Positions 6,397 through 17,700 of a stretch of 64,000 nt of DNA are shown here, in pieces. The notes under the pieces were generated by a model. That model was not told where the DNA came from, made no database searches, and saw only the letters and a list, made by a program, of their open reading frames with translations. The translations under genes and the position numbers were made by a program. How positions within the stretch are numbered: position 1 is the stretch's first letter; each line of letters begins with the position of its first letter. The DNA is from Acidobacteriota bacterium (lineage in GTDB: Bacteria; Acidobacteriota; UBA6911). The stretch lies in NCBI GenBank assembly GCA_963664705.1, contig OY761556.1:6592001-6656000 (forward strand). Reading direction: 5' to 3'.

Positions 6397-8622
6397 ATGG
6401 CACGGAGCGGGATGCATGGAGCAATGCGAGCAGGCTATAGCGCATTGCTGGTGATTCTGGTTGGCGGGATTTTGGTATCCGACTTGAGAGCGCAGGAGTC
6501 GAGCGCGGCTGAAACAGGCGAGGTCGGGTACAGGGTTGCTCCTGTGCGATCGCGCATTGTGCTGGACGGCCTTTTGTCCGAATCAGATTGGGTCGATGCT
6601 CGACCGATTGGAATGATTCGCCAGCGCGAGCCGCATCAGGGCGAACCCGCTTCAGAGCGAACCGAAGTCAAGCTTCTATTTGATGATCGAAATATCTACG
6701 TCGGCATCCAGTGTTTCGACGCAGAGCCGGGCCGTATTATTGCGACGCAGATGGCCAGGGATTCGGATCTGGCCATGGATGACAAGGTTGAAATTCTGTT
6801 CGACACTTTCCACGATCATCGCAATGCGTTTTATTTTGCAACTAATCCTGCCGGTTCCCTGGTGGACGGACTGATCATCGAGAATGGTCAGATCATGAAT
6901 CTGGAGTGGGATGCAATATGGGATGTTCGAACAACGAGGTCCGAGCAGGGGTGGAGCGCCGAGTTTGCGATTCCATTCAAAACCCTCAGTTTCAAAGCCG
7001 GTCAGAAGGCATGGGGCTTTAATTTTTCCCGCACGATTAAGAGGAAGTTTGAGGAAGATCGGTGGGCCTCGCCTCGCCTGGATACGACCTTTCAACAGGT
7101 TTCCCAGGCCGGAAAAATTGAGGGGCTGGCGGAGGTGGCCCAGGGATTAGGAATCGACATTCGCCCCTATGGTTCCGGCGATGCCATTCACTATGGCGAT
7201 ACTCAATCGAGTGCGCTGGCAGGCAAGGGGGGTGGCGATGTTTTTTACAGCCTTACTCCCAGCCTCAAGTGGTCGACCACGTTTAATACCGATTTCGGCG
7301 AGACGGAGGTGGATGATCGCCAGATCAATCTGACGCGCTTCCCCCTGTTTTTTCCCGAAAAACGAGCCTTCTTCCTGGAAAATACGGGAGTTTTCGATTT
7401 TGGAGTCATTCCCGGTCAGTTCTTTTCAGAGTTGATGCCATTCTTCAGCCGTAAAATCGGGCTGGTGGGAGATCAGGAGATTCCGCTATCGGTGGGAACG
7501 AAATTGACCGGCAAAGCCGGGCGTTTCGATATCGGGATCATGGATGTACAAACGCGCGCCGCCGGGGATATCGACAGCAAAAATCTTCTGGTTACGCGTG
7601 TAAAGAGAAACCTGTTCAGCCAGTCCTACATAGGAGGGATGTTTACCAACGGCAATCCTACTGAAGCGTCATCGTCCCAGACGTATGGCTTTGATCTGAA
7701 CCTGGCGACGTCAAACTTTGCTGGATCGGGAAAGAATTTAAAGGTGACCACCTATCTCCTCAAGACCTCCAACGAGGGGATCAAGGGCAAGGACCGCTCG
7801 TATGGCTTTGCTGTTAATTATCCGAACGACTTGTGGAACTTGGGATTCGAGTGGGGTACGGTCGAGGAGAATTTTGAGCCGGCAATGGGCTTCGTTCTGC
7901 GCGGCAACACGCGCAAGATTCGGATTGATGCGGTCTTCTCGCCAAGGCCCAGGAATTTTCTCAACCTCCGTCAGATGTACCACGAGTTCCGCTTCTACCG
8001 GTATGTGCGGCTGGATTACGGGCAGACGGAGAGTTGGCAATTTCTCACTGCTCCGATCAATTATAGATTCAATTCGGGCGATCGCCTGGAATTTGACTAT
8101 GCACCCGAATTTCAGAGGCTTTTTGAAAATTTTGAAATTTCCAAGGGTGTGACATTGCCGTCGGGCACTTACCGCTTTACGCGCTACCGGGCGGAGTGGG
8201 AAAGCGCATCCAAGAGAAAATGGGAGGCCTTTATGACCTGGTGGTTTGGTACGTACTATTCGGGTACCGCCGACCAGATCTCAACCACCTTTTCCTATAA
8301 GCTGGCGCCGCACCTGCAAACCAGCATTGGTTTGAATCAGACCTTCGGCAGATTGAAGGAAGGCAACTTTGTGGCACGCATTTATAGCTGGAAAGCCAAC
8401 TACTCCTTCACGCCGTTCCTTACGCTTTATAACCTTGTCCAATTCGATAACGAGACGAGGAATCTGGGATGGCAGAGTCGTTTGCGCTGGATTGTGAAAC
8501 CCGGGAATGACCTTTTCCTGGTGTTCAATCAGGGGTGGATTCAGGATGAACAAAACGATTTTAAGTTTCGAATGACCGACCGCAAACTATCTTTCAAGAT
8601 TCAATATACATTTAGACTCTAA
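6397..8622 (+). CDS. Exported protein with an N-terminal CBM9-like domain and a C-terminal beta-barrel (DUF5916-like)
   Basis: Signal peptide, LDGLLSESDW, GWSAEFAIPFKTL, NTDFGETEVD, RFPLFFPEKRAFFLE, aromatic C-terminal strand KIQYTFRL. Confidence 0.8.
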   Translation: MARSGMHGAMRAGYSALLVILVGGILVSDLRAQESSAAETGEVGYRVAPVRSRIVLDGLLSESDWVDARPIGMIRQREPHQGEPASERTEVKLLFDDRNIYVGIQCFDAEPGRIIATQMARDSDLAMDDKVEILFDTFHDHRNAFYFATNPAGSLVDGLIIENGQIMNLEWDAIWDVRTTRSEQGWSAEFAIPFKTLSFKAGQKAWGFNFSRTIKRKFEEDRWASPRLDTTFQQVSQAGKIEGLAEVAQGLGIDIRPYGSGDAIHYGDTQSSALAGKGGGDVFYSLTPSLKWSTTFNTDFGETEVDDRQINLTRFPLFFPEKRAFFLENTGVFDFGVIPGQFFSELMPFFSRKIGLVGDQEIPLSVGTKLTGKAGRFDIGIMDVQTRAAGDIDSKNLLVTRVKRNLFSQSYIGGMFTNGNPTEASSSQTYGFDLNLATSNFAGSGKNLKVTTYLLKTSNEGIKGKDRSYGFAVNYPNDLWNLGFEWGTVEENFEPAMGFVLRGNTRKIRIDAVFSPRPRNFLNLRQMYHEFRFYRYVRLDYGQTESWQFLTAPINYRFNSGDRLEFDYAPEFQRLFENFEISKGVTLPSGTYRFTRYRAEWESASKRKWEAFMTWWFGTYYSGTADQISTTFSYKLAPHLQTSIGLNQTFGRLKEGNFVARIYSWKANYSFTPFLTLYNLVQFDNETRNLGWQSRLRWIVKPGNDLFLVFNQGWIQDEQNDFKFRMTDRKLSFKIQYTFRL

Positions 8623-8717
8623 CGTGGTGAGTCAGAATTCCTTTGCTATTTGGAATTCCTGTTTTAGCGCCTATGATTGTGCAACATGGCCTGTTCAGGT
8701 AAAAAGGAAAAGAAAAA

Positions 8718-8790
8718 CTTGGAGTTTGGGTGTGGAAACCCGGAAGGAGCCCGGAGGGCGACCGAAGGGTTTCTACTCCCAAACTCCAAG
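8718..8790 (+). other. Long stem-loop in the element leader (24-bp arms, 2 mismatches, inner GCCC-GGA-GGGC hairpin)
   Basis: CTTGGAGTTTGGGTGTGGAAACCC pairs with GGGTTTCTACTCCCAAACTCCAAG. Confidence 0.85.
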
Positions 8791-8835
8791 CGCGGATGCA
8801 CTCGGATAGCACAGTCCTACATATTGAAGGCGCCC

Positions 8836-9654
8836 ATGATCAATAACACCAACCTTTCTCACTGGAACAGACTCCAAGCGAAGAGCCTTGACGCTCAATT
8901 TGTTAATGAGATGATTACCGGCCTTAACTGCTCTCCTTTCGAGGCGGAAGCTATTGTAGAGAAAGTTCATGAGGTTTACGTGCCGCTGTTTCAGACGGCG
9001 CAGGGACTTAAGCCGGGTCAGATTCAAGTGGCCGTGATCGATGCTTCGGTAGCGCCTAATGTGCCACTGGCAAAAGCCAAGCAGAGACTGGTAACCCTGA
9101 CCCTTCATGCAGGTACCGAAGATATCGAGACTCGAAAAAGGGGATCCGTACCAGCTCTTCGTCAGAAACGATTGTGCCGCATGTGCCAAGAAGCATTTCA
9201 GCAAGGGGGATTGTTGACCTTGGAGGATTTGGCCAATCTGTTCAATTGCGGCGTCCGCACTCTGGTGAACGACCTGGCGGCCTTGCGCAAACAGAGCATT
9301 GTGCCTCCTCTGCGCTCTACGACCAAGGATATGGGCCGCGCCATCACCCATCGCCAACTGATTATCACGCTCTGGATGCAAGGGCTTGAGTACTCCGAAA
9401 TCGCCCGTAAGACCAATCACACCATCGACTCCGTAGCCAACTACGTGGATAAGTTTAAACGCTGTGCAGCCCTGTTTGTTTCTGGATTTGACGTGGATAC
9501 AGTTGCTCTGATGGTAAAGCTTTCAACGCCTCTGACCAAGGAATTTCAGCGTATCCACTCCGCTTGCCACGGGACTCCTCACCGTCTTCGGGAATTGGAA
9601 GATTTCCTCAAAAAAAACCGCATACCAAGCCTGCGCGGGAGGAAACGGTCATGA
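8836..9654 (+). CDS. DUF1670-like protein A
   Basis: EAFQQGGLLTLEDLANL, DMGRAITHRQLII, TNHTIDSVANYVDKFKR. ATG 8836 with GAAGG RBS is preferred over GTG 8677, which would translate the hairpin. Confidence 0.8.
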   Translation: MINNTNLSHWNRLQAKSLDAQFVNEMITGLNCSPFEAEAIVEKVHEVYVPLFQTAQGLKPGQIQVAVIDASVAPNVPLAKAKQRLVTLTLHAGTEDIETRKRGSVPALRQKRLCRMCQEAFQQGGLLTLEDLANLFNCGVRTLVNDLAALRKQSIVPPLRSTTKDMGRAITHRQLIITLWMQGLEYSEIARKTNHTIDSVANYVDKFKRCAALFVSGFDVDTVALMVKLSTPLTKEFQRIHSACHGTPHRLRELEDFLKKNRIPSLRGRKRS

Positions 9655-10436
9655 TTGCCCAATCTGAGGCTCAAAAACAATTCGGCTCTGCGCGGAAGCG
9701 CTTCCTGCAGTCTTCTATTGAAAATTTTCTGGACCAGGAGTTCCCTCGCACCTTCGGACCAGTAATTCGCGAGAAAATGGCAGAAAAGATTGTGGCGCTT
9801 GTCGACCAACAACTACCTCCCAAGGATCATCTGCGCCCTGGACAGTGTGTTTGGAATGCCGTATCCATTGCGACCCGGCCTGACAGCCCCAACTGTCGTC
9901 TTGTCCCCATAGTCTTGACGCTTGTGGATTCTTCGGATGCCGAGCAACTGGCTCGCGGAACACCCATGTCCAGAATCGCCCAAACGTCCATCGCTCGGAT
10001 TTGCCGTGAAGCCTTTGAACAAGGAGCCTTGCTCTCGATGCGCGATATTGGCCTCTTAGTCTGGCGAGATAACGCCCACATCTCGCAGGTCCGGAAAAAG
10101 TGGGAGGCTGAACAGCAAACATCGTTGCCTCATGTCGGAACTATTCAAGATTTCGGCTCATGCATCACTCATAAGTCGGTCATTGTGCGCAAGGTTGTTT
10201 ATGAAGGGAAAGATCCCCGTCGTGCTGCAGATGAAACCAAGCACTCGCAGAGAGCCGTCGATCGTTACCTAAAAGACTTTCATCGAGTAAGAACGTGCTT
10301 CGAACATATCCAAGATGTTGAATTCGTTATCAAAACAACAGGTCTATCCAGGCAGCTGGTAAACCAATATGTCAGAATCATCATGGAAAATGAGAAAACG
10401 TTTCCTAAAGAGAACTTGACAGGCAAGATTGCTTAA
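9651..10436 (+). CDS. DUF1670-like protein B (paralogue of A)
   Basis: EAFEQGALLSMRDIGLL, DFGSCITHKSVIV, TKHSQRAVDRYLKDFHRV. ATGA overlap with A and a GGAGG RBS. Confidence 0.8.
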   Translation: MIAQSEAQKQFGSARKRFLQSSIENFLDQEFPRTFGPVIREKMAEKIVALVDQQLPPKDHLRPGQCVWNAVSIATRPDSPNCRLVPIVLTLVDSSDAEQLARGTPMSRIAQTSIARICREAFEQGALLSMRDIGLLVWRDNAHISQVRKKWEAEQQTSLPHVGTIQDFGSCITHKSVIVRKVVYEGKDPRRAADETKHSQRAVDRYLKDFHRVRTCFEHIQDVEFVIKTTGLSRQLVNQYVRIIMENEKTFPKENLTGKIA

Positions 10437-10524
10437 ACTCTGGCGCTCGGTATTTGGCTTACGGATCCAAATCCTGTGTAAAGATCCGTTGGATTCGCCA
10501 CACCAGGAAAGCAGGCGGGTGCCC

Positions 10525-11028
10525 ATGAAAAACGATGTTCTTCAGCAGCGTCGCATAGAAGCGAATATCATCCAGGCTTTATACGAGGAGCTGTCCAGGG
10601 AGATTGGCGAGGAACGGGCTCTGACGCTCATCGCGACTGCGGTCGGGAAGCAGGCCTTTCAAAAAGGAAGAGACCTGCGCACACTGCATCCTTCCGGCGA
10701 TTTATCGGTTCTTGCGGAGTTGTGGCGGAACCTTGGGGATGGCGGTGCCCTGGATATCGAATTCATTCAACAGAGCGCGGATTGCCTTCAGTTTCGCGTG
10801 AATCGTTGCGGGTATGCGGAAGCTTATGCCGAAATGGGGATCAGCCCCAGGCTTGGAGCGGTCTTGAGTTGCTCGCGGGACGAAGCTTTGCTCAGAGGTT
10901 TCTCGGAGCAAATATCCTTCGAATGCTCGAGGACTATCATGGATGGGTCGGGATTCTGCCAGTTCACGTACAGGAAACAGCCGTTGCCGTCCGACGACGG
11001 CAATGCAGTGCCTCCGCGAAATGACTAG
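10525..11028 (+). CDS. L-2-amino-thiazoline-4-carboxylic acid hydrolase-like protein
   Basis: LQQRRIEA, FRVNRCGYAEAY, LSCSRDEAL, RTIMDGSGFCQFTY. Start at MKNDV (10525). Confidence 0.75.
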   Translation: MKNDVLQQRRIEANIIQALYEELSREIGEERALTLIATAVGKQAFQKGRDLRTLHPSGDLSVLAELWRNLGDGGALDIEFIQQSADCLQFRVNRCGYAEAYAEMGISPRLGAVLSCSRDEALLRGFSEQISFECSRTIMDGSGFCQFTYRKQPLPSDDGNAVPPRND

Positions 11029-14730: not shown

Positions 14731-17700
14731 ATGCACGCATTAGCAAGACTCTGCATCAAGCGCCCCGTTTTCGCGACCATGTTGATGTTGTCGTTCATCG
14801 TCGCCGGCATCTTTACCTACTCGTCGCTGGGCGTAGACCGCATGCCGAACATCGATGCCCCGATGGTTACGGTGACAACGGTGAATCTCGGTGCCTCCCC
14901 GGAGGAAATTGAAACCGAAATTACCAAGAAGATTGAGGATGCCGTCAACAGCATCAACGGATTGGATGAAATCAGTTCCACGTCATCGGAAGGAATGTCC
15001 ATCGTCCGGATCGAATTCGATCTGTCCAAAAGCGGAATCGTTGCGGCTGAGGAAGTCCAGAACAAGATTAATCAGATTGTAAACCAGCTCCCTTCGAGCG
15101 CCGAGGTCCCGGTTGTTTCGAAGATGGACCCTGACGCCGGTGCGGTTCTGCAGATAGCCGTATCCGCGCCGCGTTCCACGCGTGATGTCACGATGATTGC
15201 CGACAAGCTGATCAAGCAGAGACTCGAGAACTGCGAGGGCGTCGGACAGGTTCAGATTCAGGGTGGCGCTGAACGCGAAATCCACATTGTCGTCAACCCC
15301 GAGCGTTTACGTGCGTACAACCTCACCGTTACGGACGTCTTCAATGCTCTCCGGACGCAGAATATGGAGATGCCCGGAGGAAGCGTCAAGACGGGCGCCA
15401 GGGATCTGACGATCCGCACCTCGGGGAAAATAAAGGATCCCGTTGATTTCAATAATATTGCCGTTGCTTCCCGGAATGGATACCAGGTCAAAGTCAGCGA
15501 TATCGGATATGCGCAGGACAGCACCAAGGAACCGACAACCGCGGTCCGGTTGGATGGAGTGCCGGCGGTTCAGCTGGCCATTTCCAAACAATCCGGGACG
15601 AATACGGTTGAAGTTGTGAAGGCCGTAAAAGCGCGGCTCGAACAGATCAAAGAAACGCTGCCCAAGGATATCAAGATCCAGGTGATCAACGACGGTTCGG
15701 TTTTTATCGAAGCCGCGATCAACGGCATCCGCGATCACCTGCTGGAAGGAAGCCTGCTTGCCGCCATCGTGCTGTTCTTCTTCCTGGCCAACTGGCGCAC
15801 AACCGTGATTGCTGCCATCGCGATCCCGGTTTCGATCATCTCTTCGTTCTCGCTCATGGCGATCATGCATTACACCATGAATCAGATTACGATGCTTTCC
15901 CTTACCCTGATGGTCGGCGTGGTGGTCGACGATGCCATTATTGTGCTCGAGAACATATACCGGTATATCGAGGAGAAGGGCATGGGGCCGTTTGAGGCGG
16001 CCGTCCATGGAACCAAGGAAATCGGGCTTGCGGTCTTGGCTACAACGGTATCGCTTCTGGCTGTGTTCCTTCCCGTGGGATTCATGGGGGGAATGGCGGG
16101 GAAATTTCTGAGCGCTTTCGGGTTTACCTGCGCGGGAGCGGTGATCATATCCCTGTTGGTGTCCTTTACATTGACCCCGATGCTCTGCTCTCGTTTCGTC
16201 CATCCGCCGGCCGGGAATTCGGGGCACAAATCGAAAGATTCGCGCTTTTTCCGCATGTTGGATACGACCTATACCAGGGCGCTGGTTTGGTCCATGGGAC
16301 ATCGCAAGATCATTGTCGCCGGGTGCCTCCTGGTTGTGCTCAGCATCATTCCGCTGTTCATGATGATTGGCAAAAACATGGTTCCCCGCGATGACCAGTC
16401 GCAATTCAACATCAGTATACGGTTGCCCGAGGGCAGTTCGCTGGCTGCGACAACCAAGTATTCCGAAGGTGTCGCTCGAACTATTCGCGTCCTTGACGGA
16501 GTGACCCACACCCTAACAACAATTGGCGGCAGTTCCAGCGGCGCCATCAACGAAGCCTCCATTTACGTCAAGCTGGTTGATATCAAAGACCGGGAGATGT
16601 CGTCCGAGGATCTGGCAACCAAGGCTCGCGGCATGCTCAGGAATCATCCGCCCAATATTTTTCTTTCCGTTGTCGCGGCAACCGGCATGGGCGGCGGTGG
16701 GCCGGGGATGTCCGATATTCAGTATTATCTGCAGGGACCGGATTTGAAAAAGCTCGGCGAATATTCGGATAAGCTGGTGGCTGAGGCCAAAAAACTTCCC
16801 AGCGTCGGCGATGTCGACACTTCCCTGAGAACGGGAAAGCCGGAAGTACGTCTCGATATCGACCGCCTGAAGGCAGCGGATCTCGGCGTTTCGGTGCAGG
16901 ATATCCAGCAGGCGCTCAACACCCTTGTTGCCGGGCAGACCGCCAGCACATTCAATGCAGGCGATGATCAATACGATGTTGTTGTCAGGGCGGAGAATCG
17001 GTTCCGAGGTTCGCTGGATGGACTGGATAAGCTGACGGTGGCTTCCACAAAAAATGGATCGGTTGGATTGAATGAGGTCGTGCGCAGAAGCATCAGTTCA
17101 GGACCCTCCTCCGTCAAGCGGCTGAACCGTCAGCGCATTGTGGAAATTACCGGCAACCTGATGCCGGGTGGATCCCAGTCCGCCGCCGTGTCCGAATTCA
17201 ACCGCATGATCGATAATCTGAACCTGGGTTCGGATTACAAAGGCGGAGCCACCGGCATGACCGGCGAGATGAACAAGATTTTCTATAACTTTGCGATCGC
17301 GTTTGCGCTGGCGTTCATCTTCATGTACATCGCGCTCGCCGCCCAGTTCGAGTCTTTTATCCATCCGGTTACCATTCTGATCACGCTTCCGCTGGCAATA
17401 CCCTTCGGTTTGTTCGCAATGCTGATCACCGGGCAGAGCATCAATATCTTTTCGGGACTGGGGCTCCTGCTGCTTTTCGGCATCGTGAAGAAGAACGCCA
17501 TTCTTCAGATCGACCACACCAACGGGTTGCGGGCAGCCGGGATGGGCCGCAATGAAGCGATCATTCAGGCCAACCGCGATCGTCTGCGGCCGATCCTGAT
17601 GACAACGCTTGCGCTTGTGTTCGGCATGGTGCCGCTTTTGCTGTCTCGCGGCGCCGGTTCAACAACGAACCATTCCATTGGTGTCATGGTCGCGGGCGGA

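Follow-up and report, generated by a model that had tools for sequence, protein, structure and literature searches.

An insertion sequence with 2 DUF1670 genes and no recognizable transposase, located at the loop edge of host hairpins in an Acidobacteriota genome

The window, that is, the whole stretch of 64,000 nucleotides analyzed here (contig OY761556.1, positions 6,592,001 to 6,656,000), contains 2 genes for DUF1670 proteins that overlap by the sequence ATGA. The first gene, orfA (8836..9654), encodes a protein of 272 amino acids and the second gene, orfB (9651..10436), a protein of 261 amino acids; coordinates of these genes and of the element features described below refer to the plus strand. 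Both proteins scored above the Pfam cut-off of 25 for PF07900, with 137.8 bits (E 4e-40) for OrfA and 149.5 bits (E 1e-43) for OrfB, which confirmed the initial annotation of the pair as overlapping DUF1670 paralogs. They were 27% identical to each other, and their family profiles aligned over 242 columns. The gene upstream of the locus (6397-8622) matches CBM9 and, weakly, DUF5916, the gene downstream (10525-11028) is PF14196 ATC_hydrolase-like, and both are intact. An antisense ORF (9420-8773) gave a Pfam score below the cut-off only and was treated as a shadow frame.

No function has been assigned to DUF1670 (PF07900) in Pfam. Searches of the main texts of open papers retrieved no text naming DUF1670 or PF07900, and descriptive searches for such elements in the main texts of open papers gave no hits either. 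In agreement with the initial annotation, searches of Pfam, NCBIfam and PHROGs assigned the pair to no DDE, DEDD, HUH or serine recombinase family. They gave no tyrosine recombinase family either, and no transposase name in NCBIfam was obtained above the cut-off.

Comparison within the genome identified 3 copies of the segment, at C1:6600672, 6821030 and 6862865, which were 99.9% identical in sequence and had differing flanks. These unrelated flanks were intergenic hairpins in all 3 cases. The identity of the 2 further copies to the window was limited to positions 8667-10447, and the sole differences among the 3 copies were located at 10440-10441, which indicates that these bases are derived from the target. 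In sequencing contigs from what is probably the source sample, the repeat collapsed at 8667-10439, with a depth of 2.2-2.8x that of the flanks. The limits were set by the relatives to 8672-10437 plus 1 duplicated base. Based on the 3 copies and the end motifs in relatives, the element proper (8672..10437) is 1,766 bp long and extends from TATGATTG to TAAA, with a core base C on the left (8671) that is repeated on the right (10438). The 1,766-bp segment is a genuine insertion sequence, as evidenced by near-identical copies, sharp ends, unrelated flanks and paralogous empty sites. The proposal of a mobile element that has the DUF1670 pair as its only genes was thereby upheld: it is multicopy and contains no recognizable transposase.

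The limits differ from those proposed in the initial annotation, in which the element was placed at 8624-10501 between inverted repeats, each next to a 7-bp hairpin, with AC as a target duplication. The 2 end motifs and the 2 hairpins are present, but similarity among the copies ends at 8667-10447 rather than at 8624/10501, and the motifs are not element termini, being absent from the 2 other copies. Hairpins of 7 bp occur at a density of 1.75 per kb in the window, so the 2 in question are unremarkable, and they belong to a host repeat. The site obtained by rejoining 8624-8671 and 10439-10501 matched 2 full-length empty paralogs, at C1:2822234-2822123 and C1:3510130-3510242, with E values of 2e-13 and 1.5e-12. 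Of the 119 nt in the query, the alignments took in positions 4-116 and 4-117 (approximately 8623-10502), and partial copies were also found. Since the paralog limits were at most 1 to 2 nt away from the previously proposed ends, most began with GTAG and AC flanks were lacking, we conclude that the proposed ends are the ends of the host repeat and that AC is not a target duplication. Moreover, the empty gap between the upstream stop codon and the downstream ATG is 135 nt and not 22 nt, and relatives share the inner ends.

The host repeat, of about 112 bp, is probably of the GTAG-tagged REP kind, as this kind is described in PMC3733652, and the element lies inside the hairpin at its center. Judged from the empty paralogs, the GTGG/GTAG-tagged left half (8624..8671) has GCGCC, the 5′ arm of the target hairpin, at its end, and the right half (10439..10501) starts with the 3-nt loop TCT and the 3′ arm GGCGC, followed by the right hairpin and right end of the initial annotation. 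An empty site was thus found in paralogs, but no orthologous empty site was identified among 40 relatives, nor an empty allele of the locus in the assembled contigs of the sequencing runs. It was also noted that the repeat, with its central hairpin and GTAG/GTGG tags, is low-copy, with other sites at C1:4940085, 4956940 and 4654303. An IS1111-type element (PF01548, subterminal inverted repeats) was located just after GTAG in 11 places on C1, such as L206-L215. Its copies and the DUF1670 element occur in one composite repeat family, with 2 unrelated elements sharing one host repeat; as a helper for the DUF1670 element, the IS1111-type element was rejected, its ends being unrelated. The genome holds 1 PF01797 gene (C1:1439920), and abundant tandem units of the 7-bp TCTGGAA type and a dispersed repeat family of about 80 bp were observed at many places on C1, for example in the right flank of L048.

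To compare the junctions, 89 loci of the close group were examined (L001-L006, L061-L140 and the 3 own copies), of which 47 had 2 ends and enough flank; 44 were retained once identical flanks had been dropped. The ends were located by motifs taken from this element, and their presence in 35/37 and 40/42 relatives with enough DNA is thus conserved partly by construction (the misses were 3 variant ends and 1 assembly containing Ns). The relatives cannot be treated as independent, and repeats assembled into short metagenome contigs may be chimeras. In all 44 distinct loci, the base that precedes the left end also follows the right end, as C/C in 38, T/T in 5 and G/G in 1. A CT core was ruled out, 5 of the 44 sites having A or G after the core yet T on the left. 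In the tree, the T-core rows comprised one clade of 4 with 100/100 support and 1 separate row; such near-confinement to a single clade is expected if the core must match. The junctions fit a one-base duplication from a staggered cut equally well.

Insertion occurs in one orientation, at the 5′ boundary between the stem and the 3-nt loop of a GC-rich host hairpin. Given a 3-nt loop, the 5 stem pairs were complementary in 33, 42, 40, 41 and 41 of the 44 sites. The complementarity between left and right flanks amounted to 228, compared to 183+/-5 in permuted data, a value reached by 0 of 10,000 permutations, in which kinship among rows was ignored. Fewer than 4 of the 5 stem pairs were formed at 3 of the 44 sites, and the innermost pair was C-A at 7 of the 44, with 27 such sites being empty in this genome. 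The GCGCC arm was present in 4/4 loci of the lineage of this genome. The loop was TNC at 27 sites, another TNx at 12 and GNA at none of the 44, whereas genomic hairpins of the same form include 226 with TNC, 226 with GNA and 1,176 with other loops; the insertion is therefore oriented. The opposite strand of the target hairpin usually carries C(GNA)G, which is a very stable DNA loop according to PMC3201870.

A Bacteroidales group with about 50% protein identity followed the same plan. Among its 19 two-ended loci, all 18 with flank were C/C, and the loops were 2 to 4 nt long. Furthermore, a 42-bp miniature consisting of nothing but the two ends, left and right, was found in a genome of the same genus (L040, G003:C56, about 16600-16640, minus strand). 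It has the same one-base core and junction logic and is located in a perfect 8-bp hairpin, and represents a natural minimal substrate.

The distribution of DUF1670 relatives is patchy in the genomes searched. PF07900 was present in 2 of the 30 genomes of the genus and a protein match in 3 of the 401 genomes of the phylum, and relatives were found in metagenome-assembled genomes labelled Bacteroidales, Acidimicrobiia, Methanomicrobiales and others. The element type occurs in both bacteria and archaea, the anatomy of its ends being the same, and 1,087 DUF1670 clusters (at 50% identity) were obtained at E<=1e-10. No relatives of the element were identified among the viral contigs or plasmids searched. 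The 3 own copies have replichore and orientation in common, a number too small to count. No replication-strand bias was seen among the copies in other genomes, of which 9/18 were on the G-rich strand, with the local skew being noisy in draft genomes. Nor was there a bias relative to the direction of the upstream ORF, which was the same in 16 and opposite in 12 cases against a background of 68/53, as scored with a crude ORF rule.

Joining the right end, 1 core base and the left end in silico gave the sequence TTGACA-17-TATGAT. The 17-nt distance between the predicted -35 half, TTGACA (10416..10421), and the predicted -10 half, TATGAT (8672..8677), arises solely by joining the ends with 1 core base. 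The spacer was 17 nt in all 44 loci, and TTGACA was exact in 40 of the 44, although the search motif itself required the first 4 bases, TTGA. TTGACA lies inside orfB here; in relatives it overlaps the orfB stop codon or is located about 200 nt downstream. In the Bacteroidales relatives, the left end was TATATTTG in 17 of the 19 loci, and these fit the promoter box of that phylum, TAnnTTTG, as described in part of PMC6414381. Two quasi-palindromic 12-bp boxes, which are predicted protein-binding sites, flank the joined ends: the left subterminal box (8680..8691) is set 8 bp from the end, and the right subterminal box (10422..10433), 4 bp from the end, repeats the left box imperfectly in inverted orientation.

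The predicted promoter that joining the ends would create makes it likely that the element moves via an excised circle. No circle junction was found in the contigs of 7 sequencing runs over 2 stretches (1 run had no contigs there) or among 225 other loci; a single raw-read run contained no reads from the stretch, and assembled contigs drop rare forms such as circle junctions. A search for the junction motif in viral contigs gave 121 matches, 0 of which had flanking element boxes. Because no contig or locus contained the junction, the circle is one that we infer from the ends.

A slippery heptamer, A_AAA_AAC (9612..9618, in a run of 8 As at 9610-9617), is located near the end of orfA, and a -1 slip at this site would yield an OrfAB fusion of about 533 amino acids in addition to OrfA and OrfB. 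We consider this product to be probable. In 86 of the 88 distinct junctions, an A6N heptamer was present and the -1 frame stayed open into orfB, the 2 misses having A7, and the heptamer was located 13 codons before orfB in 81 junctions. By comparison, the control frame was open in 36/86 junctions, and 45% of the Lys codons elsewhere in orfA were AAA. The gene orfA was located upstream of orfB in 74 of 75 loci. Natural DUF1670 proteins with 2 domains were also observed (P0255 and P0264, of 532 and 544 amino acids), as were 3-domain proteins of 930-952 amino acids (P0245, P0246, P0249 and P0251), the first domain of which appeared by eye to lack the H/Y motif.

The leader, of 164 nt, contains a 73-nt hairpin (8718..8790) with a variable stem and a near-invariant tip resembling the target hairpin. 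Two-sided changes were observed in 22 of the 32 predicted pairs across 24 leaders; the search of Rfam gave no family at the gathering score and 1 weak match far below it. The tip was inverted in L044 relative to L052. Further downstream (8809..8833), the left end recurs in inverted orientation as a copy followed by GGCGC, with GGCGC located 3-7 nt before the start of orfA. In a read-through RNA, the inverted copy and the 5-mer are predicted to pair with the left end and the target arm. In lineage-collapsed rows, the 5-mer matched the right target arm in 12/33, against an expectation of 4.7 (p 0.0003), and the left target arm in 10/33, against 5.2 (p 0.009), and in held-out loci with only a left end it matched in 6/13 (2.9 expected, p 0.013), in a post hoc test for a likeness first spotted by eye, with 9 variants tried per set. 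Most rows had mismatches between the 5-mer and the target arm, and the 5-mer is also the ribosome-binding region. No comparable 5-mer was seen by eye in the Bacteroidales leaders, and no bridge-type guide was found, either in the right end or spanning the insertion point (p 0.69-0.88 for the latter). IS10 and IS50 are controlled by fold-back inhibition, and IS608 uses a base-pairing guide. By analogy with these systems, we favor fold-back silencing over a guide as the role of the leader 5-mer, and quasi-palindrome correction is a third option.

The median dN/dS values relative to this element were 0.059 for orfA and 0.057 for orfB, based on 20 of 38 pairs (of the others, 14 were saturated and 4 contained gaps or stops and were skipped), and ratios of about 0.06 indicate that both DUF1670 genes are under purifying selection. 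Protein alignments were made from the best 150 of 1,999 representatives, with lengths of 235-300, plus close hits. The residues Q123, R160, H172, H195 and Y203 were invariant in all 76 aligned OrfA sequences, as were R116, Q124, H174, K175, H198 and Y206 in all 71 aligned OrfB sequences. The invariant His, Tyr and Arg residues are thus maintained in both paralogs despite an identity of 25-30%. Acidic residues in OrfA were conserved to 88-97% (E119 in 70/76, D131 in 74/76 and D165 in 67/76), and OrfB of this subfamily lacks the Arg of the PxRG motif.

The models of OrfA and OrfB, both confident (pLDDT 88), contain N-terminal helices, a β-hairpin, a winged helix and 2 further HTH units. The β-hairpin was the only such structure, with no RNase H-type sheet, central DEDD-type sheet or HUH β-sheet in either model. 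No match in PDB or BFVD was obtained with Foldseek at E<=0.001. The VIA structure search retrieved HTH domains only (best Z 6.1 and 6.7), including a weak match to the winged helix of Topo VI-A (Z 5.3-5.9), and the N-terminal segment of about 100 residues was barely covered. The catalytic fold of tyrosine recombinases was not among the best 50 structure matches of each search, the PDB sequence search gave HTH regulators only, and the ESM Atlas matches were all <0.9. Likewise, hhalign comparisons with 19 of the 27 PF00589 matches in the genome gave probabilities of 0.17-0.20%, that is, no profile similarity. In the models, the invariant Tyr sits in a sigma4-like HTH and could be structural. We know of no enzyme with the architecture of OrfA and OrfB.

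The status of the DUF1670 genes as sole cargo, their purifying selection, the invariant His, Tyr and Arg residues and the predicted frameshift fusion nevertheless give indirect support to the DUF1670 proteins as the putative catalyst. With moderate confidence, we favor an autonomous element that forms a circle with a one-base core, switches on the junction promoter, expresses OrfA and OrfB together with rare OrfAB, and relies on DUF1670 catalysis to integrate at the stem/loop edges of hairpins. Insertion takes place between the stem and the 3-nt loop in one orientation, with one and the same base at both junctions. Excision would probably join the right end, the core base and the left end, with the resulting promoter driving the leader and both genes, and a rare -1 slip at A_AAA_AAC would, with similar probability, give OrfAB. 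The HTH domains may then recognize the target hairpin as well as both 12-bp boxes near the ends. More tentatively, strand exchange over the one-base core might proceed via Y203 and Y206, helped by the cluster of His, Arg and Lys residues. After insertion, the read-through RNA would fold over the ribosome site of orfA and keep the element quiet.

Among the alternatives, the DUF1670 proteins could be DNA-binding adaptors for a host enzyme or a foreign transposase. Every recognizable DUF1670 domain is an HTH, and potential partners are available in the genome, which has 1 Y1 transposase, 27 matches to tyrosine recombinases and 11 to the IS110 family, several of these 11 lying next to the same repeat family. 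We nevertheless regard an adaptor role as rather unlikely: the IS1111-type copies have unrelated ends and a different insertion point, the end anatomy is constant for an element that spans bacteria and archaea, and invariant His, Tyr and Arg residues at 25-30% identity would seem to exceed the usual needs of DNA binding. Still less likely, in our judgment, is an autonomous element with metal-dependent DUF1670 chemistry, in which E119, D131 and D165 would act together with H172 and H195 on a composite site with a 1-bp target duplication. Such a duplication agrees with all 44 junctions, and the acidic residues of OrfA are conserved to 88-97%, but it is Tyr and His that are invariant, and the models contain a β-hairpin alone rather than an RNase H-type sheet. 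Furthermore, lineage-locked core bases better suit a requirement for matching, though a changed protein preference would also explain them. About equally doubtful is a more specific proposal, according to which OrfAB represents a new class of HTH-only, site-specific recombinases with tyrosine nucleophiles, an extruded C(GNA)G target and the leader 5-mer as a reprogrammable guide to the target arm. Finally, an element bounded by terminal inverted repeats at 8624-10501 and flanked by duplicated AC is highly improbable: its motifs exist and delimit a repeated sequence, but neither end is present in the 2 other copies, the repeat is found without genes and without AC flanks, and the inner ends are those common to relatives.

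To our knowledge, the prokaryotic insertion sequences are moved by DDE, DEDD, HUH, serine or tyrosine enzymes. The DUF1670 element, as interpreted here from its sequence, is likely mobilized by an enzyme type not yet described. Its DNA signals are IS1111-like and its expression signal is IS1-like, and it is a member of neither group. Passages of PMC11187229 and PMC11208160 describe subterminal inverted repeats and a circle-junction promoter in IS1111 elements (ISEc11, ISPa11 and ISKpn4) and IS621. Relative to these accounts, the likeness consists of subterminal inverted repeats that are unequally set (here the 12-bp boxes 8 and 4 bp in), a promoter across the joined ends (here in silico only), a REP or other folded target with a fixed base and a short core instead of a long duplication, and a non-coding region of about 160 nt (PMC11187229, PMC11208160). 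Unlike IS110 and IS1111, the DUF1670 element has no DEDD RuvC-type recombinase (no match to PF01548 or PF02371), contains 2 genes with a predicted frameshift and has a one-base core. No bridge or seek RNA with 2 target-matching guides was found in it; the 5-mer before orfA matched one target arm in 10-12 of 33 rows.

IS3 family elements have 2 overlapping ORFs and a frameshift of the AAAAAAC type. An A6C frameshift motif is described for insA/insB′ of IS1 in passages of PMC12903888, and the DUF1670 element resembles both groups in having overlapping ORFs in frames 0 and -1, with AAAAAAC near the end of the first. In contrast to IS1 and IS3, however, orfB is a paralog of orfA with a separate start codon, there is no DDE domain match, the ends TATGATTG and TAAA are not inverted, 1 base is duplicated rather than 8-9 bp, and the target is a specific hairpin. 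Tyrosine recombinases have an overlap of 6-8 bases, compared to a single base in the DUF1670 element. Several cooperating genes, a circle (proposed here from the ends) and invariant Arg, His, Lys and Tyr residues are reminiscent of the tyrosine recombinases and the multi-integrase elements RIT, GInt and SE, as far as described in part of PMC10214605. The difference from PF00589 is that there is no profile similarity to the R-K-HxxR-H-Y signature and that the DUF1670 residues are located on HTH domains. Hairpin substrates and GTAG-tagged repeats are shared with IS200/IS605 and RAYT systems, as presented in passages of PMC3733652, and a tyrosine nucleophile and a short base-pairing guide near the left end are possible further likenesses. 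Unlike IS200/IS605, RAYT and IS91, the DUF1670 element has no HUH domain and no PF01797-type match, and it differs from IS200/IS605 in that 1 base is duplicated. No replication-strand bias was seen among 18 copies in other genomes (9/18), where the local skew is noisy.

If the DUF1670 proteins are catalytic, they would represent a new chemistry of DNA breakage and reunion and provide a function for a Pfam family of unknown function. The corrected ends, the one-base core, the target hairpin, the 42-bp miniature and the frameshift site make the element directly testable, and a compact integrase precise to a single base would be a useful tool.

A few incomplete copies were also noted. In genome G018, 3 left ends with a TTTGATT variant (L042, L047 and L050) were located at contig ends, with differing GTCCC flanks and the body of the element unassembled. 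Furthermore, L052 (G009:C121) and L046 (G001:C51) contained a left end, with or without the leader, and no orfA thereafter, and are probable deletion remnants.
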